Shown here in pieces: positions 7,716 through 41,796 of a stretch of DNA of 61,380 nt. Both the position numbers and the translations under genes were made by a program. Origin of the DNA: Bacteroidota bacterium (GTDB taxonomy: Bacteria > Bacteroidota > Bacteroidia > AKYH767-A > 2013-40CM-41-45); contig PLYJ01000033.1 of the NCBI GenBank assembly GCA_003151745.1, forward strand, positions 1 through 61,380, read 5' to 3'. The notes under the pieces were generated by a model. The model did no database searches, was not told where the DNA came from, and saw only the letters and a list, made by a program, of their open reading frames with translations. Position 1 is the stretch's first letter, and each line of letters opens with the position of its first letter.

Positions 7716-8030
7716 TACAAGGTGAGTCGCCCATGTTACATGGTGATGCGACAATTTCATAAAGCGACATCATCATGTATTAGGGCGATATGACGATGTT
7801 AGATGGTGATTTCTCCATGATTTATGGCGACATGACCATTTTTTAAGGCTATATGCCCATGATTTGAGGTGATGCCGCCATTTTTCATAGTCATTCCTCC
7901 TTGTTTCATGGTTATTCCGCCTTACAACATGGCGATACCGCCTTATTTCATGGTCATATACCCTCTTCACATGGTTATGCTGGCATGTTTCATGGTTATA
8001 TTACTTGGTATTATGGTTATAGCCGAATTT
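7716..8030. repeat. Degenerate tandem array, 15 x 21 bp
   Basis: Units such as ttcatggttattccgccttac and ttcatggtcatataccctctt stay in phase without indels. Confidence 0.88.
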
Positions 8031-8218
8031 GAAAGATGTTGCAAAAATCTATTTCAAAAATGTAATATCGCGCAAGTTTAATACTACGAATGGGTTAAAG
8101 AAGACGCAGATGTTATTCTTTAAAGGGAAGTTTAATCTGTGCTTTTGAAGTTAAACGGAATGCATAAAAAGCAGGTAATGGTTATTTTGATTACTTTTGA
8201 AAAACAAAATTGAAAGGC

Positions 8219-10032
8219 ATGAGAAAAAATATTCTACACGTTTTCGCATTGGTAGTTTTGTTAATCTGCACACTATCAACAAATGCTCAATGGGTGCAGA
8301 CGAACGGGCCTTATGGCGGCGGGGTTAACTGCTTTGCCGTCAGCGGAAGTAACATTTTTGCAGGTACTGATATAGGCGCGTATATATACAATAACAATAG
8401 CAGCAAATGGACGGAAGTATATAACGGTTTGCCATTTAATACTCCTGTCAGTTCATCTGCAATCAGCGGGAGCAACATTTTTGCAGGTACTCAAAAAGGC
8501 GTGTTCTTATCCATCGATAGCGGCAATAGTTGGACGGCTGTGAATAATGGCTTGACTAATCTTTTAGTCAATTCTTTATCTGTCAGCGGAAGCAAAATTT
8601 TTGCAGGAACTGCAGGGGGTGGAGTGTTTGTGTCATACGATAGCGGTTCCAGTTGGTGGACTCTGAATAACGGTTTGACAAATGCTTATGTTGGGCCATT
8701 TGCCTTCAGCGGAAATAATATTTTTGCAGGAACTGACGGTGGTGGCGTGTTTTTATCTACGAACAATGGCAGCAGTTGGGCGGCAGTAAATAACGGCTTG
8801 CAATCAGATACTATTGTTAATTCATTAGCCATAATTGGGAGCAACATTTTTGCAGCAACTTTTAGCGGCGTGTATTCATCCACCAACAACGGCAGTAGCT
8901 GGACAGCAGTTAATATAGGTTTGACAAGTAATGCTGCCTTATCATTAGCCTTTAGCGGGAGCAACATCCTTGCAGGAACTATTCGCAGTGGAGTGTTTTT
9001 TCCACCGACAGCGGCAGCAGTTGGACGAGAGTGAATAACGGCTTGACATATTATACGTGGGTCAATTCATTAATCACCAGCGGTGCCAACATCTTTGCAG
9101 GAATGCGTGGCGGCGGCGTGTTTTTATCTACCGACAGCGGTAGCAGTTGGACGGCAGTGAATAATGGATTAACAGGTACTATTGTATTTTCATTAGCCAT
9201 TAGCGGAAGCAACATCTTTGCAGGAACTGAAGAAGGTGTCTTTTTATCCAATAACAATGGCAGCAGTTGGACGCCAGTGAACAACGGATTGACAAATGCT
9301 ATTGTCTTTTCATTAGCCATTAACGGGAACAGCATTTTTGTAGGAACTGACGGAGGCGGTGTGTTTTTATCCACTAATAACGGCAGCAGTTGAACGGCAG
9401 TAAATAACGGCTTGACAGATACCATTGTCACTTCATTTGCCTTCAGCGGAAGTAACATCTTTGCAGGAACTTATTATGGTCATAGTGGTGTATTTTTATC
9501 CACCAACAATGGCAGCAGTTGGACGGCTGTGAATAATGGCTTAACATTTACTTCTGTTTCGTCATTAGCCATCAGCGGGAGCAATATTTTTGCCGGTGGT
9601 GCCGGTGTGTTTTTATCAACCGACAATGGTAGTAGTTGGACGGCCGTGAATAATGGATTAATAAATCATGATGTCAAATCATTAGCCATTAGTGGAAGCA
9701 ACATTTTTGCAGGAATCTGGGCTGGCGGCGTTTGGAAACGTTCCTTATCAGATATTTTAGCAGTAGAAAACATCACTGCTAATGATAATGACTTTAGTAT
9801 ATATCCCAACCCCGCCACCGACCAACTCACCATTTATACTTCATCTTTTCACAACGAAGTGGTAACGGTTTCGGTGATGAATGTGCTTGGGCAGGAGGCC
9901 TCACCCCCGGCCCCTCTCCTAAGGAGAGGGGAGGATGCGGTGCTTGATGTCAGCAAGCTTGCGTCAGGTATGTATTTTCTTCAATTGAAATCGGAGAGTG
10001 AAAGTGTGGTAAAGAAGTTTGAGAAAGAGTGA
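8219..10032 (+). pseudogene. BNR/Asp-box repeat T9SS cargo protein, disrupted
   Basis: STNNGSSW repeats and a CTD (YPNP...GMYFL). A 1-bp loss near 9000 (GTGTTTTTTCC versus the usual GTGTTTTTATCC) and TGA at 9391-9393 in place of the repeat Trp. Confidence 0.85.
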
Positions 10033-10062
10033 ATGCGTGCTAATCGTTAATCATCAAATGAA

Positions 10063-12057: not shown

Positions 12058-12154
12058 AGATCGGTTCTTGATCATTTTCGGTCATTTTTTCGACCTTACT
12101 GTAATTTAAAATGATAAAAAGAGGCTGCTTGTTTGGTTATTTACATGCTTTTAC

Positions 12155-12162
12155 TACATTTG
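12155..12162 (+). promoter_or_regulatory. Bacteroidota -7 promoter element for rplU
   Basis: TACATTTG, with TTTG upstream at 12132. Confidence 0.75.
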
Positions 12163-12912: not shown

Positions 12913-12993
12913 GAACGCGGATTTTTATGATGGTTATGCTTTACGCTGATAAAAAATCATACTGTATCTTAATCATCATAAAAATCCGCGTTC
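12913..12993. repeat. 81-bp palindromic element, GAACGCGG family
   Basis: gaacgcggatttttatgatg ... catcataaaaatccgcgttc. Confidence 0.93.
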
Positions 12994-12995
12994 TA

Positions 12996-15098
12996 TTATC
13001 TTACAGTACCACCATTGTCAATAACCTTGGTGGGAGCAACAAAAGCTAATTCACCATTTGCATTCTCCGCCATCAATATCATGCCTTGCGATTCAATGCC
13101 TTTAATTTTTCGTGGTTCAAGGTTTACTAAAATGCTCACCTGCTGACCAATTATTTTCTCAGGTTCATAAAAAGCGGCAATGCCTGAAACAACAATACGT
13201 TTGTCAATGCCTGTATCAATAGTCAACTTTAAAAGCTTATCCGTTTTCGGAACACGCTCAGCAGCGAGAATGGTTCCAATGCGAATATCCATTTTTGAAA
13301 ACTCATCAAACGTAGTGCTGGACTTCGCGCTTGCTTCGGCGGGGGGTGCATTTGATGCGGCATTTGTTGGTTCGGATTGATTCAGGGTTTTAGAGGAATT
13401 AAGTTTTTGAATTTGTTTTTCAATGACGTCGTCTTCCACTTTTTCAAATAGTAATGCAGGAGTGCCAAGCTGATGACCGGGTTTAAGCACCTGTCCCTCC
13501 AAATGAGTCCATTGCATTTTTTCGATGTTGAGCATCTTAAGAATATTGGCTGAAGTATCTGGTAAAAACGGCTCAGCGAGAACAGCTAAGTAAGCCGTGA
13601 TCTCCAATGACATATATAGAATAGTAGCAACACGATCAGGATCTGTTTTAACTAGCTTCCAGGGTTCCGTATCGGCAAGATATTTATTTCCTGTGCGGGC
13701 CAAATCAATCAGTTCTGCCAATGCTTCACGAAAACGATATTTTTCGATGGCCTCACCGATATTTTTCTTTGCCCGCTTCATGGCAGCAACACACTCTTTT
13801 TCAAGATCGGTGGCGTTGCCATGTTGCGGTACCTTGCTTTCATAATAGTTCTTTGTCAGCACCAGTGTCCTGTTCACGAAGTTTCCGAAGATGGCAACCA
13901 GCTCATTATTCACTCTTGCCTGGAAATCTTTCCAGGTGAATTCACTGTCCTTTGTTTCCGGTGCAATCGAAGTGAGCACGTAACGCAATTCATCCTGCTT
14001 GTTCGGAAACGCTTCCAAATATTCATGCAGCCAAACAGCCCAGTTGCGTGAAGTGGAAATTTTATCTCCTTCCAGATTCAGAAACTCATTAGCCGGAACA
14101 TTTTCCGGTAAAATAAATTCTCCTTCTGCCTTAAGCATGGCGGGAAAAATGAGGCAATGAAAAACAATATTATCCTTCCCTATAAAATGAATCAACTTAG
14201 TTTCAGGATCGCACCAATAGTTTTTCCATTGCTCTTTAAATTTCGGATTTCGTCCCGCACGTGCGGGATCGGATTTCGGATTTTTTTCAAATAATGCTTT
14301 TGTTGCAGATATATAACCAATAGGTGCATCAAACCAGACATATAGCACCTTGCCCTTTGCATCAGGCAATGGAACAGGAACGCCCCAATCAAGATCGCGC
14401 GTTACGGCTCTTGGCTGCAAGCCCTGATCTAACCAGGATTTACATTGTCCCAATACATTATTCTTCCACTCTCCTTCCTTGCTTCTTATCCATTTGTCAA
14501 GCCACTCGTTCTGCATTTTATCAAGAGGCAGATACCAGTGTTTTGTTTTCTTTAATATCGGCGGCTTTCCGCTAAGCTGTGAATGAGGATTAATAAGATC
14601 GCGCGGAGATAAACTCGTTCCGCATTTTTCGCATTGATCGCCGTATGCATTCGAGTTGCCGCAATTGGGACAGGTACCTACTATGTAACGATCAGCCAAA
14701 AACATTTGCGTCTCTTCATCAAAATACTGTTCACTTTCTTCTGTGATGAAAACATTTTTGTCGTACAAGGTTGTGAAAAAGGCAGAAGCTGTTTCATAAT
14801 GTATCTTATCGCTTGTGCGGTGATATATATCAAATGAAATGCCGAAGTCGGCAAAGCTCTTTTTAATGATGCCATGATATTTATCTACTACTTGCTGAGG
14901 AGTGATGCCTTCCTTCCGTGCGCGTAAAGTAATGGGCACTCCATGTTCATCCGAGCCGCAGATGAAGATTACATCTTCCCCTTTCAGACGAAGATACCGC
15001 ACAAAAATATCAGCAGGAAGATAAGCACCGGCAAGATGACCTATATGGATTGGACCGTTGGCGTATGGCAGTGCAGCGGTGACGGTGTATCGGGACAT
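12996..15098 (-). CDS. metG: Methionine--tRNA ligase
   Basis: HIGH, zinc knuckle, KISTS and a C-terminal tRNA-binding domain. Confidence 0.98.
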
Positions 15099-15205
15099 AA
15101 AGATGTTTAAGGTTTAATATTTAAGGTCTAGGGTTGTTTTGTGCAATAACATTAAACGTTAAACCTTAAACTTTAAATTTTAAATTCGCGCCAAAGATAC
15201 TAAAC

Positions 15206-16114: not shown

Positions 16115-16122
16115 TTTAAACC

Positions 16123-18548: not shown

Positions 18549-18694
18549 AGAGCAAAGATAATTGATTGTTTGCAGTTTTTCTAATTGTGATGAGTAAATA
18601 CATCCAACAGATGCTGCGTGACTGGTGGGTCGCACACAGTCTTAAATAATAAAGCGCGCGGGATTGACAATCAAAGTAAGTGAGCAAGCAGAAA

Positions 18695-19300
18695 ACCATG
18701 CATATCCTCATTAAATCCATGCCTAACCTTTTTGAAGCTATGCATGATCTTTTCAGTGTTTGAGCAACCTTATCAGTTTCATGTGTAATCTTATTAATTT
18801 CATGTGTAACTTTTCAAATTCTTCACGCATCTCAATTAATTCATGCATAACCTCATCAATTTCATGCGTAATCTTTGAAGTTTCATACATAACTTTTTAA
18901 ATTCTTCGCATGAAATTGATGTGGTTAGTGCAAACCCGTTAATTTCATGTGCAACCTTAAAAATTCTTCACATGAACACGACAAGCATTCGTATAACCTT
19001 AGAAAGCCCATCAATAATCTTGATAAAGCTTCACATGAATGCAACAAAGTCATGCATGACTTCATCAGTGTTATGCATGCTTTCAATAGAGTCATGCATG
19101 GAATCGTTAAAGTTATGCATGAATTCAACAGTGTCATGCATGAAATTGGTAAGATCATGCATGGATTCAATAGAGTCATGCATGCTTTTGATAGAGTCAT
19201 GCATGGAATCGTGAATGTCATACATGAAATCAATAGAGTGATGCATGGTATTATTAAAGTCATGTATGAAATTAATAAAGTCATGCATGGATTTTGCCTG
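18695..19300. repeat. Degenerate ~21-bp tandem array with CATGCATG core
   Basis: 12 cores exactly 21 bp apart from 19051 to 19282. More degenerate units with small slips extend back to about 18695. Confidence 0.9.
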
Positions 19301-19534
19301 AATAGTACGTTTTTTATGAAAATTTGAGAGGTTTTTGAAAAATGTGATAGAAATTTAGTTATGGAGGAATGTATACGATACACCCCTAAAGGATTATTTT
19401 TATCTCTTAAGAGTTTGGGGTTCAAAAACATTCCTACTTTTGACAATGCTTTGAATACTATTCGAGCTAAGCACAATAAATTATTCTTCTGCATTTCTTT
19501 ATTTGTAATCTTAGTGAACAAGAATATGAAATAA

Positions 19535-21079: not shown

Positions 21080-24000
21080 ATGCACAACAAATTATTCTAT
21101 TCCATTTCCCTGTTTCTTTTTTTGGCAATTAATCCCACGATTAGCCATGCACAATGGCAGCAAACCAACGGTCCTTATGGAGGTACTATTGTTTGCATGG
21201 CTGTCAGCGGAACAAATATTCTTGCAGGAACTCACAGCGGTATATTTTTATCCACGAATAACGGTGGAAACTGGACTGCAGTTAATAACGGTTTGCCATT
21301 CGATACTATTGTTTCAGAATATGCCACTATTAATTCATTTGCTGTCAGCGGAACAAACATTTTTGCAGCAACTGGCGGCCGTGGCATGTTTTTATCTATC
21401 AACAATGGCAGCAGTTGGACAGCAGTGGATAACGGCTTGACTAATTTTTATGTTAATGCAATAACCATCAGCGGAACAAACATTTTTGCAGCAACTGAAG
21501 GCGGCGGAGTGTTTTTATCCACGAACAACGGCAGCAGTTGGATACCAGTTAATAGTGGCTTGACAAATCTTGAAGTCTATTCATTAGTTGCGTCGGGAAC
21601 AAAGATTTTTGCCGGGACTTATGGTGGTGTTTTTTTATCCACCAACAATGGCAGCAGTTGGACAGCAGTGAATAACGGCTTGACAAATACTTTTATCTAT
21701 TCATTAGCCATCAGCGGAACAAATATTTTTGCGGCAACTGATGGTGGCGGCGTGTTTTTATCCACTAACAATGGCAGCAATTGGACGGCAGTCAATAGTG
21801 GCTTGACAAGTGGTATTGTTTGGTCATTGGCTATCAGCGGGACAAACATTTTTGCTGGGACTGACGATGGAGGCGTGTGCTTATCCAGCAACAATGGCAG
21901 CAGTTGGACGGCGATGAATAGCGGCTTGACAAATACTACTGTCTTATCATTAGTCACCAGTGGGACAAACATTTTTGCTGGAACCAATGGTGGTGGCGTG
22001 TGTTTATCCATCAACAATGGCAGTAGTTGGACAGCGATGAATAGCGGCTTGACAAATACTTCTGTCTTATCATTAGCTGCCAGTGGGACAAACATTTTTG
22101 CGGGAACTGATGGCGGTGATGCGTTTTTATCCAGCAACAATGGTAGCAGTTGGACGGCGATGAATAGCGGACTGACAAATACTTATGTCTATTCATTAGC
22201 CATCAGCGGGGCAAATATTTTTGCCGGGACTCTTAACGGTGTGTTTCTATCCGCCAACAATGGTGACAGTTGGACGGCAGTGAATAGTGGCTTGCCACAA
22301 TATACTTTTGTTTTTTCAATAGCCATCAATGGGACAAACATTTTTGCGGGAACTGAAGTCAGCGGCGTGTTTTTATCCACCAACAATGGCGCAAACTGGA
22401 CAGCGGTTAATACCGGTTTGACAAATACTCAAGTTAATTCACTGGCTGTAAGTGGAAGCAATATATTTGCCGGAACTTATGGTGGCGGCGTGTTTTTATC
22501 AACAAATAATGGCAACAGTTGGACGGCTATCAATACTGGCTTGACTCATACTTATGTTTGGTCATTAGCCATCATAGGGACAAACATTTTTGCCGGGACT
22601 GATGGTGGCGTATTCTTATCCACTAATAACGGTAGCACTTGGACAGCAGCCAATAATGGAATGGTCGGTGTAAGTGTAAGTGCGTTGGCCATCACAGGGA
22701 CAAACATTTTTGCGGGAACTAATGCTGGCGTGTTTTTATCCACCAATAATGGTGCAAACTGGACAGCGGTTAATGACAGTTTGATAAGTGCTCAAGTTAA
22801 TTCATTAGCTTTAAGCGGAACAAATATTTTTGCAGGAACTGTTGGTGGTGGAGTGTGGGAACGTCCTTTATCTGATTTTGTAGTTTATCCGCCGCAGCTT
22901 GATCATATCGGCCCTACACAAGGAGGAAATACAGGTGACGTGACTATTACATTTTTCGGCAGAGCGTTTGGTGATAGCACACAAGTTAAGCTGACAAGGA
23001 GCGGGTATGCTGATATTGTTGCGCCCGATTCATTGACAACACTTACCGCAGATGGAAACGAGGTAGTAGCTACATTTAACCTAAGAGGTCAGCAAGTGGG
23101 TTTATGGAATGCGGTAATGACTATACCGAATGATACGGAAATGACACTTACTAATGCGTTTAATATAATACAAGGCAGCCCTGCACAGGTTTGGTGTAAC
23201 ATTTTAGGTCCGTCACAAATAAGAGTAAATCAATTTGGCAATTTTTCACTAAACTTTGGCAACACAGGCATTGTGGATGCTACGGCTGTTCCATTATGGC
23301 TTGCCATACCCGACAGCATGGTTTCTGATTTCAGCTTTCAAATAACTAATCCGCAGGATACTTTATTCGATTATGATACTATACCTAATTTCGCCCATGC
23401 AGATACCGTATTAGGAGAAAGTTTTAGTGGAAACGTATATCAGTTTTTAGTAAGAAGAATTCCGCCAGGGCAAACTGCTTCACTCAACTTTCGCTTAAAG
23501 ATGCCCTTTTCAGGTAGCAAAAAATTGATGGCTGGTATTCGGCCGCCTCTATATGCTTCTCCTTTAAATCCACAATTGGAAGAGTGCTATACGGCAGTTT
23601 TTAAAGAAATAGATGATAAATTAGGTGATTTACTTGGCCTGCCTGTTGTAGATTGCTTTAACGATTCATGGGATAACGTATATAAGATATGGAAAGATTC
23701 TCCTTGGTTTGATAACAATCCAGATTATGGAACTCTTCCTTACATACTCGACTATTCAAAAAGTCTTTTTTCAATGGTAGCGGATTGTGTTATTGATGTT
23801 TCAGGCACAAGATTATCTGCGATTGAAAATATGGCAAAGGTTGCGTATGAGTTTAGCGGGTATGTTCATCTTGCTTCTTCATGTATTCCATATATATTCA
23901 CTACTGTTCATGGAGATAAAAACTTTAGTACGGTTATTTCCGTTGATCCGAATGAAAAATACGGACCAACAGGTTTGGATTCTTTAAATACAATTAATGC

Positions 24001-25069
24001 TAAGAACCCGCTTAGCTATGTAATAAAATTTGAGAATGATACGGCTTCCACAGCAGCAACACAAAACATACTGATCATTGATTCATTAAATAAATCTCTT
24101 TTAAATTTAAACTCTTTCAGATTTGGAAACATAATGGTTGGCACGAATACATTATATCCTGTTACCAGTTTAAGTAGCTATCAGGATGAAATTGATTTAA
24201 GACCGGCTATAGATTTATTAGTACGTGTAACTGCTACTCTTGACACGGCAAGCGGTGTTGCGCAATGGCTGTTTCAATCTATAGACCCTCTTACTGATTC
24301 TGTAACAACTAATCCGTTGCTTGGTTTTTTACTTCCTGATACTATTCCTCCAAATGGCGAAGGTTTTGTTTCTTATTCCGTGCTTATAAAAGATTCTATA
24401 AAGCTGAATTCAGTAGTCAGTAATACAGCTTATATTTATTTCGATAGCAATCCTGCCGTGCAAACAAATAATTGGACTAACAGAATTGACAATGTTAAAC
24501 CTGTGAGCAAGGTTGATTCATTACCTCCTTTTGAAACAGACAGTTTGTTTACTGTAAGTTGGGCAGGCAGTGATACGAGTTCAGGATTGTTGGATTACAC
24601 AATTTATTATTCTGTGAACGGCGGTACGTATAAAGTTTGGATAAGTGATACGAGAACAACGTCTGCAACATTTTCAGGCACTGTTGATTCAACATACCAT
24701 TTTTATAGCATTGCGCGTGATAGCGCTTATAACGTTGAAGATGCACCTGCTACTCCAGATGCTTCTACCACAATTGAAGTTCCTGCCGGAATTAAATCAT
24801 TTGATATGGCTTCGGGTAATTTGCTTGTGTATCCGAATCCTGCAAACACAGAAATTTATTTCGTTTATAATTTACCTGCTTCTTCACAAGTATATTTGAG
24901 AATTTTTAACCTCCTTGGGCAGCAATCTTACGATATAATGAATGAAACCCAATCCCAAGGAATTCATAAATTCAGAACTGATGCAAGCAATATAGCCCAA
25001 GGAACATATCTCTGCGAATTGAGATATGGTAATTCTGTCAAGAGAAGCAAGCTCGTGATTATAAAATGA
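21080..25069 (+). CDS. Large BNR/Asp-box repeat T9SS cargo protein
   Basis: Signal peptide, about 13 STNNGSSW repeats, SVDPNEK/FEN/IYFD domain, and a CTD (YPNP...GTY). Confidence 0.9.
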   Translation: MHNKLFYSISLFLFLAINPTISHAQWQQTNGPYGGTIVCMAVSGTNILAGTHSGIFLSTNNGGNWTAVNNGLPFDTIVSEYATINSFAVSGTNIFAATGGRGMFLSINNGSSWTAVDNGLTNFYVNAITISGTNIFAATEGGGVFLSTNNGSSWIPVNSGLTNLEVYSLVASGTKIFAGTYGGVFLSTNNGSSWTAVNNGLTNTFIYSLAISGTNIFAATDGGGVFLSTNNGSNWTAVNSGLTSGIVWSLAISGTNIFAGTDDGGVCLSSNNGSSWTAMNSGLTNTTVLSLVTSGTNIFAGTNGGGVCLSINNGSSWTAMNSGLTNTSVLSLAASGTNIFAGTDGGDAFLSSNNGSSWTAMNSGLTNTYVYSLAISGANIFAGTLNGVFLSANNGDSWTAVNSGLPQYTFVFSIAINGTNIFAGTEVSGVFLSTNNGANWTAVNTGLTNTQVNSLAVSGSNIFAGTYGGGVFLSTNNGNSWTAINTGLTHTYVWSLAIIGTNIFAGTDGGVFLSTNNGSTWTAANNGMVGVSVSALAITGTNIFAGTNAGVFLSTNNGANWTAVNDSLISAQVNSLALSGTNIFAGTVGGGVWERPLSDFVVYPPQLDHIGPTQGGNTGDVTITFFGRAFGDSTQVKLTRSGYADIVAPDSLTTLTADGNEVVATFNLRGQQVGLWNAVMTIPNDTEMTLTNAFNIIQGSPAQVWCNILGPSQIRVNQFGNFSLNFGNTGIVDATAVPLWLAIPDSMVSDFSFQITNPQDTLFDYDTIPNFAHADTVLGESFSGNVYQFLVRRIPPGQTASLNFRLKMPFSGSKKLMAGIRPPLYASPLNPQLEECYTAVFKEIDDKLGDLLGLPVVDCFNDSWDNVYKIWKDSPWFDNNPDYGTLPYILDYSKSLFSMVADCVIDVSGTRLSAIENMAKVAYEFSGYVHLASSCIPYIFTTVHGDKNFSTVISVDPNEKYGPTGLDSLNTINAKNPLSYVIKFENDTASTAATQNILIIDSLNKSLLNLNSFRFGNIMVGTNTLYPVTSLSSYQDEIDLRPAIDLLVRVTATLDTASGVAQWLFQSIDPLTDSVTTNPLLGFLLPDTIPPNGEGFVSYSVLIKDSIKLNSVVSNTAYIYFDSNPAVQTNNWTNRIDNVKPVSKVDSLPPFETDSLFTVSWAGSDTSSGLLDYTIYYSVNGGTYKVWISDTRTTSATFSGTVDSTYHFYSIARDSAYNVEDAPATPDASTTIEVPAGIKSFDMASGNLLVYPNPANTEIYFVYNLPASSQVYLRIFNLLGQQSYDIMNETQSQGIHKFRTDASNIAQGTYLCELRYGNSVKRSKLVIIK

Positions 25070-33548: not shown

Positions 33549-36071
33549 ATGAAAAAAATAATTACAATTATTGCAGCGGTTATAATCTCTGCAAATGTGT
33601 TTGCCCAGGCTCCGGCAAAAATGAGCTACCAGGCTGTTATCCGAAATACGAGTAACACACTTGTTACAACTACAACTGTTGGAATGCGCATAAGCATTAT
33701 GCAAGGTTCTCTTAACGGCACTGTGGTATATGTAGAAACTCAATCGCCTTTAACAAATGCCAATGGTCTTGCAACTATTGCAATAGGCAACGGCACTGTA
33801 GTAAGCGGCGACTTTTCTGCCATTGATTGGTCAAATGGTACATACTTTATAAAAACAGAAACTGATCCTAACGGTGGTACAAGTTATGATATCGCAGGAA
33901 CAAGTCAGTTAATGAGTGTGCCTTATGCATTGTATGCAAAAACTTCAGGCAGTTCAATTCCCGGCCCGCAAGGAGCAACAGGCCCGCAAGGTGAAATTGG
34001 TTTTACAGGGCCAACAGGTCCACAAGGTCCGGGAGGAGCAAGAGGTCCACAAGGTCCGATTGGTTTAACAGGTGCAACTGGTCTTCAGGGTCCGCAAGGT
34101 GCGATTGGTTTAACAGGCGCAACAGGTGCACAAGGCCCGCAAGGTCCTGCCGGTACTGATGGTGCAACAGGTCCGCAAGGAACAACAGGCCCGCAGGGTC
34201 TTAAAGGTAATGATGGAGAAGTTGGTGGTCAGGGTCCGCAAGGCCCTGCAGGTAGCGATGGAGCGACAGGTCCGCAAGGCCCCATTGGTTTAACAGGTGC
34301 AACAGGTGCTCAAGGTCCGCAAGGCAATGCGGGTAATGACGGAGCAACTGGCCCTCAAGGTCCTGCCGGTAATGATGGTGCCAATGGAATGGATGGTGCG
34401 CAAGGCCAGACAGGATTTCTTCAGTCAGGTTCAACCGCAGGTAACACTCCTTATTGGGATGGTTCGAATTGGGTCACTACTACAAGCAATATATTTAATA
34501 GTGGAGGCAATGTAGGAATAGGTACTGCAACCCCAGGTGCGCAATTAGATGTAAATGGAAATGCAAATGTTTCCGGTAATTTAGATGCAACCAGCTTTAT
34601 AGTTCTCGGCGGTACAAATGCTCAATTCTTAAAAGCTGACGGATCGGTTGATACCAATACCTATTTAACAACAGCACAACAGGGAGCAACTACGCTTGCC
34701 CCTATTGATACCAATCCGAATACTAAAGGTGCTACACTAAACGGTATCACATTAAGCTTAGAGCCTGCATCAACAAGCTTTGGCGGTGTGGTTACTACCG
34801 GTGCGCAATCATTAGCAGGTGCTAAACACTTCGTTGATTCTTTAACTACAGAAGGAACATTAACGGTTGGCAATGGTTTTTCAGGAAACGGCAGAGTAAA
34901 TATAATTAGTAATAATAATAATTTCACTAATCCTATCGGTGTGCAGTTAAACATCGGCAGTTATGTGAAAACATTTACGGGTGCAGCTGACACCACTTTA
35001 CCGTTCTACAGTGTTGCTGATATTGATGCCTCTTATCTTGGTAACGGCAACAACGTAACCTTTACCGATGCCACAGCACTTCATTTAAGGTCCCCTTGGG
35101 GCGGTGGTTTTACTAACGGATGGGCTTTAACAACTGACGGATCAGTAAAAGTGAATGGCAACATTAATACTTCCGGCACTCTTACAATCGGTTCTGTAAC
35201 TTACCCAAATAGTGACGGCGGATCAGGACAGGTATTAACAACTAATGGTAATGGAACTCCATCATGGCAGACTTTACCTACTATTTCAGGTCCAACGGGT
35301 CCACAAGGTCCTACAGGATTACTTACCAGCGGCACTGCTACAGGAGTAACTCCTTATTGGGATGGCAGTTCATGGGTTGTGAGCAGTACAAATGTTTATA
35401 ACAATGGCACCAGCATTGCCATTGGTACGACCACTCCAGATGCTTCAGCCAAGTTGGACGTGAGTTCTACAACACAATTATTTTTACCTCCAAGAATGAC
35501 TACTGCTCAAAGAGATGCAATCAGTTCACCTGCAAGCGGAGGTATCTTATATAATACCACAACTAAGAAGCTTCAGTCGTACGTTGCAGCAGTTTCTCCG
35601 TCTGTTGATGGTACAGGCACCGATGGTACATGGGCACTCTGGGATGGTCCGGCACAAGGACAAACCATTCAACCTTTGTCAACAGGTACGCTTATATCAG
35701 TAGTTGCACAGGTTGCAATCAGAGCTTCTACAGGAGATATCCAGGCAAAAGTTTACAATAGTGTAAACGGTACTTTAATCGCTACCTCAGATAACACCGT
35801 TACAGCTCCATGGGCGGGTTCGGAATTCAACTTTGTGCCCGGCACCTGGACATTTAACGGCGCTGCTTTAACGCTTAACTCAGGCACTACGTATTACATT
35901 GAGTTTACTGCAACAAACGGAAACCGCTTCTTTATAGGAAGTTCACAATCTTACCCGCGTGGTGACATTTACACCGGCAATCCAGGAAGCGTAAGCATAC
36001 ATTCAGGTTATGATATTGACTTCATCGTTAACTACGGAGGCTCTTCTGCATCCTGGAACGATCTTTATTAA
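33549..36071 (+). CDS. Secreted collagen-like repeat protein
   Basis: MSYQAVIRN and SVPYALYA N-domain, long Gly-X-Y run (~33960-34410), GIGT..P and LPPRMTTAQRDAI motifs. Confidence 0.88.
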   Translation: MKKIITIIAAVIISANVFAQAPAKMSYQAVIRNTSNTLVTTTTVGMRISIMQGSLNGTVVYVETQSPLTNANGLATIAIGNGTVVSGDFSAIDWSNGTYFIKTETDPNGGTSYDIAGTSQLMSVPYALYAKTSGSSIPGPQGATGPQGEIGFTGPTGPQGPGGARGPQGPIGLTGATGLQGPQGAIGLTGATGAQGPQGPAGTDGATGPQGTTGPQGLKGNDGEVGGQGPQGPAGSDGATGPQGPIGLTGATGAQGPQGNAGNDGATGPQGPAGNDGANGMDGAQGQTGFLQSGSTAGNTPYWDGSNWVTTTSNIFNSGGNVGIGTATPGAQLDVNGNANVSGNLDATSFIVLGGTNAQFLKADGSVDTNTYLTTAQQGATTLAPIDTNPNTKGATLNGITLSLEPASTSFGGVVTTGAQSLAGAKHFVDSLTTEGTLTVGNGFSGNGRVNIISNNNNFTNPIGVQLNIGSYVKTFTGAADTTLPFYSVADIDASYLGNGNNVTFTDATALHLRSPWGGGFTNGWALTTDGSVKVNGNINTSGTLTIGSVTYPNSDGGSGQVLTTNGNGTPSWQTLPTISGPTGPQGPTGLLTSGTATGVTPYWDGSSWVVSSTNVYNNGTSIAIGTTTPDASAKLDVSSTTQLFLPPRMTTAQRDAISSPASGGILYNTTTKKLQSYVAAVSPSVDGTGTDGTWALWDGPAQGQTIQPLSTGTLISVVAQVAIRASTGDIQAKVYNSVNGTLIATSDNTVTAPWAGSEFNFVPGTWTFNGAALTLNSGTTYYIEFTATNGNRFFIGSSQSYPRGDIYTGNPGSVSIHSGYDIDFIVNYGGSSASWNDLY

Positions 36072-36963: not shown

Positions 36964-37551
36964 ATGCAAGATGTAAAGACTCCTGTTTCGGTTTATGCCG
37001 AGAGTACACCCAACCCTACTTCGATGAAGTTTGTGGCCAGTCAGTTTTTATTGCAGGAAGGCAGTGTTGAATATCCGACAAAAGAAAGTGCGGCTAACTG
37101 CCCGTTGGCTGTTCAGTTATTCAGCTTTACGGGAGTGAGCAGCGTTTTTATCACCAGCAACTTTGTTACTATCAACAAGACACCTGATATTGACTGGTAC
37201 GACATCACGAACATTCTGCGTGAATTCATCAAAGGATATATACAGTCAGGAGAAAAGATTTTCATTGGTCCGCTGGAGCAAAAGGCTGACCTAACAGTAG
37301 AGCATACTTTTAGTTCGTCCAAAGTAGAAAGCAAGATCATTGAAATGCTGGATGAATATGTAAGACCTGCAGTGGAAGGAGATGGCGGCGCCATTCATTT
37401 TAAATCATTCAATGAAGGTGTGGTAACACTAACGCTAAAAGGTTCGTGCAGCGGTTGCCCAAGTTCAACCGTTACTTTGAAAAACGGCATTGAAAACTTG
37501 CTTAAGAAGATGATTCCTGAAGTGACTGAAGTGGTTGCAGAAGGAGAATAG
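36964..37551 (+). CDS. nfuA: NifU/NfuA family Fe-S carrier
   Basis: ESTPNP and GSCSGCPSS. Confidence 0.9.
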   Translation: MQDVKTPVSVYAESTPNPTSMKFVASQFLLQEGSVEYPTKESAANCPLAVQLFSFTGVSSVFITSNFVTINKTPDIDWYDITNILREFIKGYIQSGEKIFIGPLEQKADLTVEHTFSSSKVESKIIEMLDEYVRPAVEGDGGAIHFKSFNEGVVTLTLKGSCSGCPSSTVTLKNGIENLLKKMIPEVTEVVAEGE

Positions 37552-37631
37552 AACACGTATTATTATGATGGTTATGATTTAAGCAGATTTAAAATCATAA
37601 TTGATCTTAATCATCATGAAGATTAGCGTTC
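37551..37631. repeat. 81-bp palindromic element, GAACGCGG family (diverged copy)
   Basis: Aligns with 12913-12993 at the same length and overlaps both flanking stop codons. Confidence 0.88.
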
Positions 37632-38205
37632 ACTTTTTATAAAAATTCATCTCCTTAATATACTCCCACACAGCCTCAGGCGTCATGTAATGCACATCCT
37701 TTTTGTCTTTGATAGCATTGCGAATAAAGCTGGCTGAGATTTCCATCAACGGTGCATCTACCACTTTTACATTTTTATGATGCAGTAAGTTGCCACCTGT
37801 ACTTCCTTTGCGCGGATATACATATAGTTCATGCTCAGCTAAAATCTGCTCGTAATTTTTCCACTTGTGAAAAGTATCCAGGTTGTCGCTGCCGAGAATA
37901 AGTGCAAACGTATGTTGCGGAAACTTTTCTTTCAGATGAGCAAGTGTGGTAACCGTATAGCTTGGTTGCGGCAATTTGAATTCAATGTTGCTTGCTTTTA
38001 GTTTTCTATAATAACCAACAGCATGCCTCACTAAAGCAAGGCGATGGACATCGGGGAGCAGTGTGGCCTTCGGCTTCAACGGGTTTTGCGGTGACACGAC
38101 CAACCACACCTGTTCAAGATCAGTAAACTCAGCCATGTACTGTGCAATCACCATGTGACCGTTATGCACAGGATTGAATGAGCCGAAGAAAAGACCGATC
38201 TTCAT
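37630..38205 (-). CDS. nadD: Nicotinate-nucleotide adenylyltransferase
   Basis: GSFNPVHNGH and ISASFIR. Confidence 0.96.
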   Translation of the reverse strand: MKIGLFFGSFNPVHNGHMVIAQYMAEFTDLEQVWLVVSPQNPLKPKATLLPDVHRLALVRHAVGYYRKLKASNIEFKLPQPSYTVTTLAHLKEKFPQHTFALILGSDNLDTFHKWKNYEQILAEHELYVYPRKGSTGGNLLHHKNVKVVDAPLMEISASFIRNAIKDKKDVHYMTPEAVWEYIKEMNFYKK

Positions 38206-38280
38206 TAGAAAATGAATAAAGAATAAGGAATAAGGAATAAAGAGGTCATTGCTTTTTTATTCATTATTCATTCCTACTTT

Positions 38281-38847
38281 TTACTTACTTAAAAAATCAT
38301 CTACAAGTTTCTCCGCAGCAGCCAGCGCGTCTTCCAGTTTGTCATTAATGATGACATGGTCAAACTTATCTGCATACGTCATCTCATGTTCTGACTTCTC
38401 CGTGCGTGCCCTAAATGTGTCCGGTGTTTCTGTAGCGCGTGCCTTGAGGCGATGATGAAGCTCATCCATAGATGGCGGCATCACGAACACAGCAAGCAAC
38501 CGATCATTGTATTGCTTCTTGATATTAATACCTCCTTCCACATCCACATCGAAGATGGCAACTTTGTCTTTTCTCCAAATGCGTTGCAGTTCAGATTTCA
38601 ATGTTCCATAATAACCGTTTTGATATACTTCTTCCCATTCAATGAACTCATCATTCTCTTTTCTTCTCTTAAATTCATCCACGCTCATGAAGTAGTAATC
38701 CTGTCCGTCACTTTCATTCGTGCGCTTATTACGCGTAGTAGCTGAAACGGAAAAGCTCAGCTGCGGATATTTCTTAAGCAGGTGATGAACAATGGTCGTT
38801 TTGCCACTACCTGATGGTCCGCAAAAGAGTAATAGTTTATTATTCAT
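38281..38847 (-). CDS. gmk: Guanylate kinase
   Basis: GPSGSGKTT and YYGT; start at ATG 38847. Confidence 0.96.
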   Translation of the reverse strand: MNNKLLLFCGPSGSGKTTIVHHLLKKYPQLSFSVSATTRNKRTNESDGQDYYFMSVDEFKRRKENDEFIEWEEVYQNGYYGTLKSELQRIWRKDKVAIFDVDVEGGINIKKQYNDRLLAVFVMPPSMDELHHRLKARATETPDTFRARTEKSEHEMTYADKFDHVIINDKLEDALAAAEKLVDDFLSK

Positions 38848-38924
38848 TCGTTGTTGGGTAATTGAGGTAATTTGGAAATTAAGGAAAGGGTACCAATTAC
38901 CCAATTACCTTAATTACCTTTTCA

Positions 38925-39797
38925 TTAAATAACATTCATCAACTGTTCCTTTATCTTCTCCAATTCATCTTTCATGTCCACCACATGCTTCTGCATTTCG
39001 GCATCGTTGGCTTTTGAACCGATGGTATTTACCTCTCGTCCTATCTCCTGTGCAATGAAAGAAAGTTTTTTCCCATTTGATGTGGGCTCGTTCATGGAGC
39101 TGATAAAATAATCACAGTGGCTTTTCAATCGTGTCTTCTCTTCACTGATGTCATTCTTCTCGATGTAGTAAATCATTTCCTGTTCTAAACGGTTGCGGTC
39201 AATGTTGGCTGCCTTAATAAATTCTTCCAACGAAGAAGTCAACTTCTTTCGGACTGCTTCTGCACGAGACGCTTCAAACTTTTCAACGCCTGATAATAAT
39301 TTAGAGATAACGCTGATGCGGTTCTTCAGATCATTTTCCAAAGCCTTTCCTTCTGTATCGCGAAAAAGAAGGTATGCTTTCTTCGTCTGGTCAATAACTG
39401 TTTTGATCTGGCTCCACTCATTTTCATCAACTTCTCTTTTCTCTGTATTAAATACTTCGGGAAAACGCATGATGATGTTCAGGTAATCCGAAGAAGAAAT
39501 TTTGTAATCGGCATCCAGCGATTTCAGTTCATCAAAATAAGCTTTGATGAGGGTTTTGTTGATGGTGACTTTTGTTGTTTCTTCGGAATACTCAATCGTT
39601 ACATATATGTCAATCTTGCCGCGTTCAAGCTCTTTCGACAGCTCGTTACGCAATTCAAGGTCTTTGTCTTTGTAGCTGGAAGGCAGGCGCAGGTTGAGAT
39701 CAAGGAACTTGCTGTTTACAGAACGCATCTCAACCGTGATAATTTTATTATCAACTTCTGAAACTGCGCTTCCGAAACCGGTCATGGAACGAATCAT
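38925..39797 (-). CDS. yicC: YicC/YloC family endoribonuclease
   Basis: MIRSMTGFG and QEIGREVNTIGSK. Confidence 0.95.
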   Translation of the reverse strand: MIRSMTGFGSAVSEVDNKIITVEMRSVNSKFLDLNLRLPSSYKDKDLELRNELSKELERGKIDIYVTIEYSEETTKVTINKTLIKAYFDELKSLDADYKISSSDYLNIIMRFPEVFNTEKREVDENEWSQIKTVIDQTKKAYLLFRDTEGKALENDLKNRISVISKLLSGVEKFEASRAEAVRKKLTSSLEEFIKAANIDRNRLEQEMIYYIEKNDISEEKTRLKSHCDYFISSMNEPTSNGKKLSFIAQEIGREVNTIGSKANDAEMQKHVVDMKDELEKIKEQLMNVI

Positions 39798-39804
39798 ATT
39801 CTTT

Positions 39805-39897
39805 GGGTAATAGGGTGATTAGGGTAATTAGGGTAATTAGGGTAATTAGGGTAATTAAGGCTGTGGTACTAATTACCTCAATTACCTTAACTACTTC
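39805..39897. repeat. 9-bp repeat hairpin, (GGGTAATTA)n ... (TAATTACCT)n
   Basis: Directly visible; related copies at 38856-38920 and 53396-53444. Confidence 0.9.
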
Positions 39898-39938
39898 TTG
39901 CAGACAAAAGTAATTTTATTTGATGAATAACTCTTAGG

Positions 39939-40850
39939 CTACTCTACAACGGATATCTTTCGTTTTGTATTCCTGCTTGCAAGATACACACCTGCAAAAA
40001 TCAACAACGCTGCAAAAACTTTCATCCAGTTAACCGAATCATGTCCTGTGGAAATAGCGATAGCTGCAGTGAGCAATGGCTGGAGATAGATGTAAGCACT
40101 TACCACAGACGCGCTCAGCGAATTCAAGGCATATACATTCAGGATGTAAGCAATAAAGGTGGTGCCGACAGCCATAAACGCTATATATAGCCAGACGGTT
40201 GATCCGAGCGAACTCCAATGCACGCTCGTCAGGTCTCGGAATCCGATAGGGAACACGAGGATCAGTCCAAAAGTGAATATCCATTTAAGGATGGTGACGG
40301 TGTGATATTTTTTCATCATCGGCTTCACCATCACGAGGTAGGTGCCCCATGCAGCGGCATTAATAAAAATCATCAGGTCGCCGATTGGATTATCCGATCT
40401 GCCGGAAGCATTCATCCCGCTGTTCAGCATGAGGACGGCAGCGCCTGCAAAGCCCAACACAATGCCAACCGTCTTTACCACAGTGATGCGCTCTTTTATT
40501 AAAAGAACGGAAATGATGAGTACCAGGATGGGCGTGGTAATCATCATGATGGCAGCGCTGATGGGAGAAGTTAAGCTGAGCCCTTCGATAAAAAGCGTCT
40601 GGTTGATGGCAACACCGAAAACGGCAAGCAGCAGGAACTTCGGCAAATCCTTTTTGTCGACTTTTTCCTTCGCAAACAGAAACCCTGTGATCCAAAACAA
40701 AGGAGTAGCCACCAGAATCCTCACCAGCACCAATGCAAGCGGAGGCAGATAGCTTGCCGTGAGAATCTTACCAACAATAAAGCTGATGGAAGATATAACC
40801 TGTGCTACGAAAAGAGCAATGTGCGCTTTAGAGTTCGGGTGTGATTTCAC
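39939..40850 (-). CDS. DMT/EamA family transporter
   Basis: About ten TM helices in two repeats; YLQP motif. Confidence 0.92.
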   Translation of the reverse strand: MKSHPNSKAHIALFVAQVISSISFIVGKILTASYLPPLALVLVRILVATPLFWITGFLFAKEKVDKKDLPKFLLLAVFGVAINQTLFIEGLSLTSPISAAIMMITTPILVLIISVLLIKERITVVKTVGIVLGFAGAAVLMLNSGMNASGRSDNPIGDLMIFINAAAWGTYLVMVKPMMKKYHTVTILKWIFTFGLILVFPIGFRDLTSVHWSSLGSTVWLYIAFMAVGTTFIAYILNVYALNSLSASVVSAYIYLQPLLTAAIAISTGHDSVNWMKVFAALLIFAGVYLASRNTKRKISVVE

Positions 40851-40936
40851 TATATATGAGTAGCAGTGGCAGTAGCACTAAGCAGTGCTGCCAACTGCCA
40901 TTGCCAACTGCCACTTGTATATTTTTTCATATTTTA

Positions 40937-41290
40937 TTATTGAGCCATTGCCTCTTTCGCTGCTGCTACTGTTTTAGGTGCATTGCCAATAAAAATTTGC
41001 TTGCCTATAATGATGACCGGGCGTTTGAGAAACGTGTACTCGTCAAGAATGTATTTACGGTAATCCTTTTCTGTAAGCTTCATAGCATTCAGCCCCATGC
41101 TCCGATATTTCAATGCCACGCGGCTGAACAAGCTTTCATAAGAACCGGCAAGCTCCTTCATTTCATCAATTTGTGCGGGAGTAATCTTTTCAGTTTTTAT
41201 ATCCTGCATGATAAAATCCTTGCCGGGCTTTAACTCTTTAAGGATTCGCTGGCAGGTGGTGCAGGTGCCTAAGTGATAAATCTTTTTCAT
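40937..41290 (-). CDS. ArsC/Spx family protein
   Basis: IYHLGTCTTC and FLKRPVI; start at ATG 41290. Confidence 0.88.
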   Translation of the reverse strand: MKKIYHLGTCTTCQRILKELKPGKDFIMQDIKTEKITPAQIDEMKELAGSYESLFSRVALKYRSMGLNAMKLTEKDYRKYILDEYTFLKRPVIIIGKQIFIGNAPKTVAAAKEAMAQ

Positions 41291-41544
41291 AATTAAGGAA
41301 TGGAATCCCGCACATGAGGGAATGACTCGGATAAGCCGAATCGCACACGTGCGGGATGCTATTAGCGCGCAAATATACCCCGCAAACAAACAATGAAATA
41401 ACATCGTCATTTCTTTATTTCAACATCAGTCCCCTTTCATAATTCACTGAGAATTATCAGAAGAAAGTTAAATAATACAACGCATCATTCCACCATCCCA
41501 ACTTTTCTTCTCCTTTTTATTCAAAAAGCGCTGTTAACTAACAG

Positions 41545-41796
41545 GTGATTACCGATAACTAAATCACGATTACCGGTAACCATAGTTTAGGTATCTTTCC
41601 CTATTTGGTGGCTACAGGTAATCACCATTTAGGTACCTTTCCCTATTACGCGATTACTAACCATCACGCAAAAAGTACCGGTAACCACAGTTTAGGTACC
41701 TTTCCCTATTTGGAGATTACGGGTAATCATCATGTGATTGCCGGTAATCACACATTAGGTACCGCTCCCTATTAGGTGGTTGCTAATCATCTTTGG
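41545..41796. repeat. Tandem array, 12 x 21 bp, with two unit types
   Basis: P units of consensus GTGATTACCGGTAATCAC and Q units TTAGGTACCTTTCCCTATT, all in phase. Confidence 0.92.

Follow-up and report, generated by a model that had tools for sequence, protein, structure and literature searches.

How do three arrays of 21-bp units, each with its own consensus, come to stand in the intergenic DNA of a single bacterial contig? The window analysed here, meaning the whole stretch of 61,380 nucleotides, is one contig of a 4.6-Mb Bacteroidota assembly (G000, this genome). The initial annotation had noted the three arrays and proposed that a single mechanism makes or uses fixed-length 21-mers. Printing in a gapless 21-base register places array 1 at ~7716-8030 (15 units), array 2 at ~18690-19298 (29 units) and array 3 at ~41541-41796 (12 units), with the following parts:

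7716..7883, unstranded: array 1, left sub-array, ~8 units of 21 bp in the orientation opposite to the right sub-array (in-register print; TRF 7815-7869, period 21)
7884..8030, unstranded: array 1, right sub-array, ~7 units of 21 bp (in-register print; TRF 7868-7954, period 21, 4.1 copies)
18690..18990, unstranded: array 2, left arm, ~14 degenerate 21-bp units, an inverted copy of the right arm (TRF; in-register print)
19026..19298, unstranded: array 2, right arm, ~13 units (TRF 19034-19293, period 21, 12.4 copies; in-register print)
41541..41796, unstranded: array 3, ~12 units of 21 bp of two alternating types (in-register print)

The period-21 rows reported by TRF in the window are 7815-7869, 7868-7954, 18769-18821, 18840-18893 and 19034-19293, the last of which scores also at periods 42 and 63. 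Array 3 was not picked up by TRF even at its lowest threshold; its direct-repeat spacings of 21, 42, 63, 63, 147 and 168 bases are all multiples of 21, and since two unit types alternate in it, one of them a 14-base perfect palindrome, its effective period is 42/63. The common 21-bp period of the three arrays is thus borne out by TRF rows, gapless register and repeat spacings together. Inverted symmetry is present in array 2, whose arms (18692-18964 and 19034-19294) are 70-83% complementary and whose right-arm unit has a conserved 10-base palindromic core with a variable remainder (in-register print), in array 1 as a single inverted pair (38-nt arms at 7832-7869 and 7920-7957, 71% complementary), and in the palindromic units of array 3. 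As described initially, each array has a minus-strand gene to its left and a plus-strand gene to its right, and lies upstream of the start of the latter, by 180, 237 and ~519 bp, respectively. A search of the whole window against Rfam at gathering thresholds gave no match; a CRISPR array was considered and rejected on this ground and because the units are contiguous and their variable halves alike.

The array class across the genome

Across the whole assembly, TRF detects 328 merged arrays of period 21, 42 or 63, with a total length of 41.7 kb. Among rows of at least 2.5 copies, 217 have period 21, 112 period 42 and 27 period 63, whereas periods 20 and 22 account for only 13 and 4 rows, respectively, a sharp excess over other periods of the kind suspected from the three arrays of the window. 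Most arrays of at least 120 bp are intergenic, lying outside long ORFs (130 of 140 overlap coding sequence by less than 10%). By unit consensus, 160 arrays fall into 104 sequence clusters. The three window arrays had been described as unrelated, and their units are indeed distinct, but they are not wholly unrelated, since a common profile over 105 arrays reaches 4.2 bits, compared with 3.0 when the columns were shuffled (five controls). Inverted arms that match perfectly over 5 bases or more occur in 45% of 105 unit consensus sequences and in 13% of shuffles, while a large inverted self-match is found in only 2 of 110 long arrays, the units running head-to-tail as direct repeats. The dyad symmetry claimed for the window is therefore confirmed in part.

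Within arrays, identity is 0.62 at lag 21 and at background at lags 7 and 14 (0.25 and 0.245), so that the 21-bp units are not triplets of heptamers. Identity at lags 42, 84 and 126 exceeds that at lags 21, 63 and 105, and the gain of lag 42 over lag 21 is larger than 0.05 in 47 of 78 arrays. Column conservation has a 3-base, codon-like periodicity in none of 78 arrays; the conserved columns form contiguous cores (mean lag-1 autocorrelation of 0.22), and the match between units is imperfect (57-93%). The arrays are DNA-level elements, neither genes nor multiples of heptamers.

That the arrays might be products of k = 21 de Bruijn assembly, or genes for heptad-repeat peptides, was considered, as 21 is often the smallest k-mer that assemblers use, contig edges account for 50 of the 130 long arrays, and some arrays are open in one frame. 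However, the imperfect units are not the perfect cycles of an assembly product, and array 2 is matched without differences by Logan contigs X1 (18848-19063 and 19097-19261) and X2 (18696-18927 and 19167-19357), whose runs come from two different studies (one run may be the source sample). Assemblies that other groups produced contain the same arrays, two of the contigs concerned being 2.7 Mb and 713 kb long, while a coding origin is contradicted by the missing codon-like periodicity and by the contiguous cores. This explanation is refuted for practical purposes, and we give it next to no probability. Copy-number variation between samples was looked for in Logan contigs from four runs; these are short, with little depth, and show only two joints, both probably from paralogous arrays.

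Divergent intergenic regions contain 32 arrays, compared with 21 expected by length (p = 0.015), a modest excess; convergent regions are not depleted (10 observed, 11.8 expected). A family of ~225-aa proteins, in which no Pfam domain was found, is enriched beside arrays, with an array upstream of 17 of its 51 members, and no common DNA-binding gene was found among array neighbours. A family of secretion-tail proteins was rejected as a partner, its 16 neighbours being about as many as expected from more than 200 paralogs by a rough estimate. A large mobile element surrounding the arrays was likewise rejected, as repeated segments are only a little commoner in the flanks (35% within 0-100 bp, down to 11-18% at 400-1000 bp) than among random segments (129/600). 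Two members of a small RAYT-like family lie 126 and 643 bp from arrays (contigs C58 and C107), the C58 protein matching PF01797 with E = 4.6e-28. TRF also reports 347 period-7 rows in this genome, and period-7 rows are present in relatives too.

Insertion-sequence ends and array flanks

Arrays of this class adjoin the ends of an insertion sequence (IS) of ~1.6-1.7 kb, with TG...CA tips, an orfA and an orfB that encodes an rve DDE domain. Its right arm is non-coding, ~390 bp long and made of ~31-bp (31-32-bp) repeats resembling the element's own tip. A complete element is present on a metagenome contig (L029), where orfA (73-456) and orfB (489-1355) occupy two consecutive frames between tips TGT... 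and ...ACA, an arrangement of the IS3 type, which also has imperfect terminal inverted repeats that end in 5'-TG...CA-3'. Its OrfB matches the IS3 family model NF033516 with 235.6 bits (cut-off 160) and its OrfA weakly matches the N-terminal part of the same model. Judged by these matches, the linked insertion sequence is a member of the IS3 family.

An rve family search of the whole assembly of this genome gave only two weak matches (C162 and C100), neither on the window contig; no IS body seen in the assembly exceeds an 844-base fragment on C162, and the listing of contigs under 3.5 kb includes none below 2.5 kb. Tips lie within 60 bases of a contig end in 26/28, 37/37, 19/19, 18/21 and 3/8 occurrences for the five tip sets. 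Arrays and IS copies break short-read assemblies and longer IS bodies are not seen in the bin, and a single contig thus hides the link between the two. The initial statement that no integrase gene lies nearby is accordingly true for the window but misleading, since IS bodies longer than 844 bases are unseen in the assembly and their tips stand at contig ends.

A flank was scored as periodic if the first 126 bp outside the tip exceeded the 99th percentile of random windows. By this measure, the flank is periodic at 27 of 28 right ends of the element (IS-1) and at all 8 occurrences of a second tip type (End E), compared with 10 of 37 IS-1 left ends, 1 of 19 occurrences of End C and 0 of 23 of End D, an unrelated IS used as control. 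The arrays start at the first base outside the right tip, with their units in register from there (offset zero), and are far rarer outside the left tip. A short start motif is common to the flanks outside right tips across different arrays. No gradient of similarity is seen at the junction in 36 flanks (identity of 0.59 between units 1 and 2, 0.62 between 2 and 3, and 0.63 between 3 and 4). A strict 25-base tip pattern gives only 8 matches because contig ends cut the tips, and ~36 further arrays adjoin tips at contig ends. In one array family the units look like the IS tip, and the tip profile matches 8-9 of 130 long arrays, compared with 1 of 238 control windows, and none of the window arrays. 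On one contig pair (C190/C162), a GTT duplication flanks the IS and an array unit is restored across it. When three distal flanks were used to look for IS-free alleles inside the assembly, no allelic contig turned up, and the matches were to other dispersed repeats of ~90 bp.

The window arrays connect to these tips through their relatives. The left arm of array 2 has 81% identity over 188 bp with the array adjoining an End-E tip on contig C247. Relatives of array 3, which is in the same family as C233:47494-47723, adjoin IS right ends on C51 and C242 and one IS left end on C20. For the right sub-array of array 1, only a weak 30-bp match was found, to the flank of an IS left end on C119. By sequence similarity, arrays 2 and 3 are IS-free members of families that adjoin IS tips elsewhere in the genome.

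The association extends to other genomes, where 40 related loci were collected, both ends being located by regular expression in 13. In these Bacteroidota loci, 11 of 12 right flanks and 3 of 13 left flanks are periodic. A target-site duplication of 3-4 bp is characteristic of the IS3 family. Among the 12 loci with both flank triplets (L029 left out), exact 3-bp repeats across the IS are present in 3 (L055, L071 and L083) and absent from the remaining 9. At L055, the duplication is ATG and array lies on both sides of the IS; at L071, the left flank holds a degenerate or partial unit. The period is 21 beside IS copies with OrfB identity of at least 61%, and beside more distant relatives it is 22 (L071, 51% OrfB identity, and L088, 38%), 40 (L076) or 55 (L073). 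Arrays beside IS copies in different genomes, and within the genome G066, have short motifs in common when compared by eye.

Beyond this genome, ~1.1 Mb from seven other genomes was sampled. In G066, 200 kb of random sequence contains one 68-bp period-21 array, and a solo right arm adjoins an array of 14.9 copies (89% matches); a 35-base copy of the tip precedes a right arm, and two full IS copies are 100% identical, one of them without an array. Solo right tips also stand next to arrays of 9.8 copies (G067) and 12.5 copies (G068), and in G068 the tip has one additional tandem copy of 26 bases. Samples of 100 kb from each of four relatives in the same family contain no true period-21 arrays. 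IS-1 DNA has only short partial matches, none longer than 158 bp and with 69-91% identity, in 8 of the 53 other genomes of this family, and no match in the remaining 45. At orthologous flanks in relatives of G066, which at ~66-71% identity are too distant to decide between models, an array is present in 0 of 4 loci.

Origin of the arrays

Since arrays sit against the right end of one IS family both here and in other bacteria, this jumping gene probably makes or uses them. The original proposal of a mechanism that makes or uses fixed-length 21-mers gains from the period-21 excess and from this right-end tie, while the divergent-region preference that accompanied it is weak. Tentatively, and at somewhat short of an even chance, we favour the explanation that the donor end of the IS drives array formation or expansion and that later insertions re-use the arrays. 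The transposition complex at the donor end would promote tandem duplication of about two helical turns of the adjacent DNA, the protein complex acting as the ruler, so that an array would take its unit from whatever DNA lay beside the tip. Unequal exchange could then expand and homogenise the array, giving the A/B (42-bp) alternation; arrays would outlive the IS as orphans, as in the window, and later insertions would re-use them at a preferred position within the unit. All three window arrays may accordingly be IS-free orphans of a genome-wide class of intergenic satellites with a 21-bp period, mechanistically coupled to the IS3-family right (donor) end, an assignment we make with a confidence still below even. 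The specific notion that the complex is a molecular ruler, each round at the right end adding or re-amplifying a tandem copy of ~21 bp and making the transposon a minisatellite generator, is given a slightly lower probability. We know of no IS3 chemistry that yields a 21-bp duplication, and this mechanism is our inference. Several findings speak against generation by the IS: an IS tip cannot be recognised at most arrays of this genome, some insertions clearly entered pre-existing arrays (L055, C190/C162 and the left flank of L071), the units nearest the IS have no extra similarity, short motifs shared between arrays are not predicted by purely local templating, and one of the two identical IS copies in G066 lacks an array.

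In the main rival account, which we consider less likely, the arrays are independent of the IS in origin and serve only as landing pads. This IS3 lineage would prefer them as targets, inserting with fixed orientation at a favoured unit position and mostly near one array edge. Hundreds of arrays without any IS tip, the matched 3-bp duplications with array on both sides (L055 and C190/C162), the partial unit to the left of the IS in L071 and the flat similarity at the junction would all follow, the start motif common to right-tip flanks of different arrays is what target preference would give, and IS3-family elements inserting at one REP position are a precedent in the available text of PMC1525189. 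However, the asymmetry (27/28 against 10/37 here, 11/12 against 3/13 elsewhere) then needs an unexplained preference for one edge, and the origin of the fixed period is left unexplained. Arrays are rare in the G066 sample, yet the large ones seen lie at IS right tips, solo tips included, and the solo tips of G067 and G068 adjoin arrays as well. The tip itself is copied in tandem, the period changes with the IS lineage, and 9 of 12 loci lack an exact 3-bp duplication across the IS.

Alternatively, the arrays could be phased operators, dyad sites two helical turns apart that act as a promoter-upstream scaffold or insulator, with a host regulator, a nucleoid protein or OrfA of the IS as the putative binder, the IS link being secondary. 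The 21-bp period with its 42-bp super-period has the appropriate spacing, and the dyad arms, the clustering of conserved columns into contiguous cores, the modest divergent-region excess and the ~225-aa protein family downstream of arrays are all consistent with binding. It is nevertheless improbable, as 104 clusters among 160 arrays would require very many binders, convergent regions are not depleted, arrays are missing from four sampled relatives, and neither the offset-zero start at right tips nor the left/right asymmetry is explained. Of the three options named initially, insertion hotspot and templated addition both remain candidates, and a phased scaffold to which an IS protein binds would agree with either of them. 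Movement of REP/BIME-like units by RAYT (IS200-like Y1) transposases, suggested by the two RAYT-like genes near arrays and by the many units that are short palindromes, is very improbable: units are direct and head-to-tail rather than alternating, with a large inverted self-match in only 2/110 arrays, the unit families number over 100 where one or a few would be expected, and the association measured is with IS3 tips. A strict contiguous 21-bp period is, to our knowledge, not a feature of REP.

Insertion sequences that home to repeated intergenic elements are already known. A full-text literature search found no IS lineage in which, across several orders of Bacteroidota, nearly every right end adjoins a strict 21-bp-period array of variable sequence. 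If the IS makes the arrays, a transposon would here be writing repetitive DNA by a fixed ruler, which would be new and would explain more than 300 such arrays in one genome. The ruler reading, if true, would mean that minisatellites outlive the transposon, make up ~1% of the genome sequence, remodel promoter-proximal intergenic DNA and provide safe landing pads for later copies. Should the arrays be no more than landing pads, they would represent a new kind of safe-harbour target.

Comparison with known systems

Plasmid iterons and the centromere repeats of ParR/omega-type systems are direct repeats of ~20-22 bp in helical phase, cooperatively bound by dimeric proteins, and occur once or a few times per replicon beside the gene of their binder. 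The arrays described here differ in numbering hundreds per chromosome, in having many sequences and in their link to an IS. Heptamer tandem repeats (TAACTGA and others) in Beggiatoaceae, Cyanobacteria and five Bacteroidetes, as described in the available part of PMC4679880, resemble them as abundant intergenic short-period arrays of unknown origin. They differ in unit, the 21-bp units being without similarity at lags 7 and 14, and 21-bp arrays are not treated in that part of PMC4679880. IS1202-group elements, which according to the accessible portion of bioRxiv 10.1101/2022.12.17.520857 adjoin XerCD sites, are likewise found repeatedly beside one class of short host sites, but they belong to a different IS family and those sites are single recombination sites, whereas here they are tandem arrays.

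For IS2, another member of the IS3 family, the sections of PMC3299598 available to us describe the right end as the exclusive donor, the only end cleaved and transferred in the first step, and the left end as the recipient. By analogy, this asymmetry offers a known reason why the right end may differ from the left; a flanking tandem duplication as seen here is not described for IS2 in those sections. IS1397, ISKpn1 and ISPsy8 are IS3-family elements that insert into the palindromic units of REP/BIME, according to the part of PMC1525189 at hand. As in that group, an IS3-family element lies here at a fixed position in short, repeated, often palindromic and clustered intergenic units; at least some of the copies studied here stand inside arrays with a 3-bp duplication. 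While REP/BIME units are of one or few types and alternate, the units here are strict head-to-tail 21-bp repeats of more than 100 types, and, unlike in the IS1397 group, the array lies almost only on the right-end side, with solo tips and tandem tip copies adjoining arrays as well.

Period-21 arrays in the window and the genome

The initial annotation described three intergenic arrays in the window with a common 21-bp period, dyad symmetry and divergent placement, and set them at island edges. Apart from the island-edge placement, which is at most putative, this observation is confirmed, on a far larger scale than is visible from the window. The period is borne out by a gap-free 21-base register print at each locus:

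Array 1, about 7716-8030: about 15 units, between a SufA-like gene and a BNR/secretion-tail gene
Array 2, about 18690-19298: about 29 units, between an antitoxin-like gene and a HAD-like gene
Array 3, about 41541-41796: about 12 units, between an ArsC-family gene and an XRE regulator followed by a BpuJI-like nuclease

Each array is bracketed by a minus-strand gene on one side and a plus-strand gene on the other. Period-21 rows are returned by TRF at 7815-7954, 18769-18893 and 19034-19293; array 3 is undetected by TRF, and its copy spacings are 21, 42, 63, 63, 147 and 168 bases. The dyad symmetry takes the form of two sub-arrays of opposite orientation in array 1 and likewise in array 2, and of palindromic units in array 3.

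TRF analysis of the whole parent assembly (G000; 4.6 Mb, 279 contigs, G+C 40%, with the window as the entire contig C50), counting rows with at least 2.5 copies, gives 217 rows of period 21, 112 of period 42 and 27 of period 63, an excess at period 21 over periods 20 (13 rows) and 22 (4 rows). Merging yields 328 arrays (41.7 kb in total, median 95 bp, the longest mostly about 230-330 bp); clustering by sequence divides the 160 arrays that reach 100 bp into 104 groups. Of the 140 arrays that reach 120 bp, crude ORF calls (84% coding) place 130 in intergenic DNA (50 of these at contig edges) and give a coding share above 90% for 6, one of which is the collagen-like gene of the window. Within-array identity reaches 0.62 at lag 21 and stays at the background level of 0.25 for lags 7 and 14. 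Lags 42, 84 and 126 give higher values than lags 21, 63 and 105, and 47 of 78 arrays show alternation of two unit types. Conserved unit columns are clustered in these 78 arrays, and 45% of unit consensus sequences (13% in shuffles) contain perfectly inverted arms 5 or more bases long. Large palindromes resembling arrays 1 and 2 occur in only 2 of 110 arrays.

Several genes of the window carry a type IX secretion sorting domain, a feature that assigns it to Bacteroidota. Secretion-tail proteins with 123-bp coding repeats (BNR/sortilin-like propeller blades) are encoded at 8210-10032 and 21080-25069; the former gene is broken into three ORFs (8210-9034, 9031-9393 and 9412-10032), which suggests frameshifts or collapsed repeats. 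The collagen-like 840-aa ORF at 33549-36071, with 9/45/63-bp repeats at 33971-34147, belongs to the small number of coding period-63 rows and has no relation to the intergenic arrays. Downstream of array 3, the region 42311-46834 encodes an XRE-type regulator and three proteins of about 460-480 aa, the first with a BpuJI N-terminal nuclease domain and a NOV_C domain, and may be a restriction or defence cluster. A nine-base tandem repeat (6 copies, 93% matches) lies between two minus-strand ORFs at 39805-39857. A flank query led by chance to a dispersed intergenic repeat about 90 bp long, which is present at 12913-12997, 37547-37631 and 58164-58266 and in at least 20 copies across contigs; it matches both strands and is thus palindromic. 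A second dispersed family has a length of about 98 bp.

Elsewhere in the assembly, 51 paralogous proteins (about 225 aa each, without a Pfam domain; e.g. C25:22588-23274, C47:15074-15751, C87:7406-8095) form a family in which 17 members have a period-21 array within 800 bp upstream; of the array-less members, 11 are under 500 bp away from a contig end. Two IS200-like Y1 (RAYT-type) transposase genes, C58:10079-10579 and C107:14592-15101, lie 126 and 643 bp from period-21 arrays.

An IS3-family element and its tips

The same few terminal sequences recur at many contig ends of G000, an assembly broken by at least three insertion sequences; among the contigs listed under 3.5 kb, none is below 2.5 kb. 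The first 126 bases outside each tip were scored by lag-21/42 identity, with the 99th percentile of 2000 random windows as the threshold.

Recurrent contig ends and adjoining arrays in G000
End A (right tip of IS-1): 28 occurrences, 25/28 within 100 bp of an array; periodic flanks 27/28
End B (left tip of IS-1): 37 occurrences, 9/37 near arrays; periodic flanks 10/37
End C: 19 occurrences, 0/19 near arrays; periodic flanks 1/19
End D (unrelated IS, control): 21 occurrences, 0/21 near arrays; periodic flanks 0/23
End E: 8 occurrences, 7/8 near arrays; periodic flanks 8/8

A complete IS-1 element is present in a 1772-base metagenome contig (L029), in the order End B, orfA (127 aa), orfB (288 aa, rve), a terminator-like hairpin read by eye, non-coding repeats and End A. 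Its OrfB passes the curated IS3-family model, and its right arm comprises about 390 non-coding bases of about 31-32-bp repeats resembling its own tip. The longest IS body seen in the G000 assembly is an 844-base fragment (C162:5810-6653), and an rve search of G000 returned only this fragment and a weak match on C100. A second IS may terminate in Ends C and E, judging from a miniature element on C67 with one E-like and one C-like end.

Outward from the right tip, the array units follow in register, beginning with the first base (offset zero), and right-tip arrays of differing sequence share a short start motif. Array 2 has 81% identity over 188 bp to an array adjoining End E on C247, array 3 is akin to arrays adjoining End A (C51, C242) and End B (C20), and array 1 gives only a weak 30-bp match. 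The proposal in the initial annotation that one mechanism handles fixed-length 21-mers is supported, and points to an IS3-family element that is itself absent from the window.

On the downstream-gene side, the sequences flanking arrays 1 and 2 (8031-8075 and 19299-19350) resemble, by eye, a T-rich/A-rich motif similar to the inner part of the End E tip; the tip profile gives no score at either flank. The strict form of the motif has 12 occurrences genome-wide, and 9 of these lie no more than 100 bp from an array.

An OrfB search gave 40 loci in other Bacteroidota assemblies and a few bins labelled as other phyla. In most loci of at least 61% identity, TRF places the start of a period-21 array 226-470 bases past the orfB match, with a different unit sequence at each locus, and the array begins at the tip wherever the tip is visible. 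Both tips were located by regular expression in 13 loci (the other 27, with one tip missing or unmatched, are unscored), and the right flank is periodic in 11/12 and the left in 3/13. Distant IS relatives adjoin arrays of other periods (22 in L071 and L088, 40 in L076, 55 in L073).

Genome G066, which has a 2.7-Mb contig, contains two IS copies with 100% identity across 1709 bases; an 11-copy array follows one of them, and the other is array-less and followed by a gene. This genome also has a solo right arm, with an extra 35-base tip copy ahead of it and a 14.9-copy array (89% matches) behind it; that array merges gradually into an older, related one. A random 200-kb sample of the genome contains one period-21 array, of 68 bp. 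In G068, a solo right arm has an extra 26-base tandem tip copy and then a 12.5-copy array. A solo tip in G067 adjoins a 9.8-copy array, and the 80 kb around a full IS copy contains no further period-21 row.

Origin of the arrays

We tentatively favour the reading that the IS drives the formation or expansion of arrays, which are later re-used as targets; the transposition complex would measure 21 bp and duplicate that stretch. This is consistent with the strong right/left asymmetry seen again in independent genomes, the zero offset from the tip, the variation of period with IS lineage, and the tandem copying of the tip itself, with tip-like repeats in the right arm and tip-like units in one G000 array family. 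In G066, the only genome sampled as array-poor, large arrays are seen at right tips alone, solo ones included, and true period-21 arrays are absent from four same-family relatives (100 kb sampled from each), which have at most short partial IS matches. A possible reason for the one-sidedness comes from IS2, an IS3-family element whose right end is the sole donor end (PMC3299598, in part). Alternatively, the arrays might be purely pre-existing landing pads for the IS, which we regard as rather unlikely. This would fit the lack of a recognisable tip at most G000 arrays (tip profile matches at 8-9 of 130 and in 1 of 238 control windows, with arrays 1-3 all unmatched), the 3-bp duplications with array on both sides in L055 and the C190/C162 pair, the degenerate unit left of the IS in L071, and IS-adjacent units no more alike than interior units; against it, exact duplication across the IS is absent in 9 of 12 scored loci. 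A search for IS-free alleles in the G000 assembly and relatives of G066 found none to settle the two readings.

Host operator arrays are an improbable explanation; divergent intergenic regions are mildly over-represented (32 arrays, where region length predicts 21; p = 0.015), and arrays are not depleted in convergent regions. A REP/RAYT origin is very improbable, and an artefact or coding origin can be given almost no credence. Parts of array 2 are matched exactly in Logan contigs (runs from two studies, one run possibly the source sample), so the arrays were not created by the G000 assembly; the runs in which the window sequence occurs are peat metagenomes. A codon-like conservation pattern along the unit is found in 0 of 78 arrays.

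Comparison with known systems

A separate TRF peak at period 7 (347 rows genome-wide in G000) includes the window heptamer arrays at 6966-7048, 15105-15186, 38214-38272, 56857-56992 and 49928-49959, several of which consist of two neighbouring arrays with complementary heptamers and could fold into long intergenic hairpins. Heptamer arrays are also numerous in two of the four sampled family relatives (15 per 100 kb in G013, 8 in G007). Heptamer repeats are described for some Bacteroidetes in the excerpted text of PMC4679880; they are present in G000 too, yet form a class separate from the 21-bp arrays, to whose units they are unrelated (lag-7/14 identity at background).

Full-text searches of the literature, outside subscription-journal papers and ISfinder notes, gave no description of IS-linked 21-bp arrays. 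The closest known cases are IS3-family elements homing to REP/BIME units; compared with these, as portrayed in the excerpted text of PMC1525189, the present arrays differ in their strict contiguous period, their many unit types, their one-sidedness and the tip duplications.
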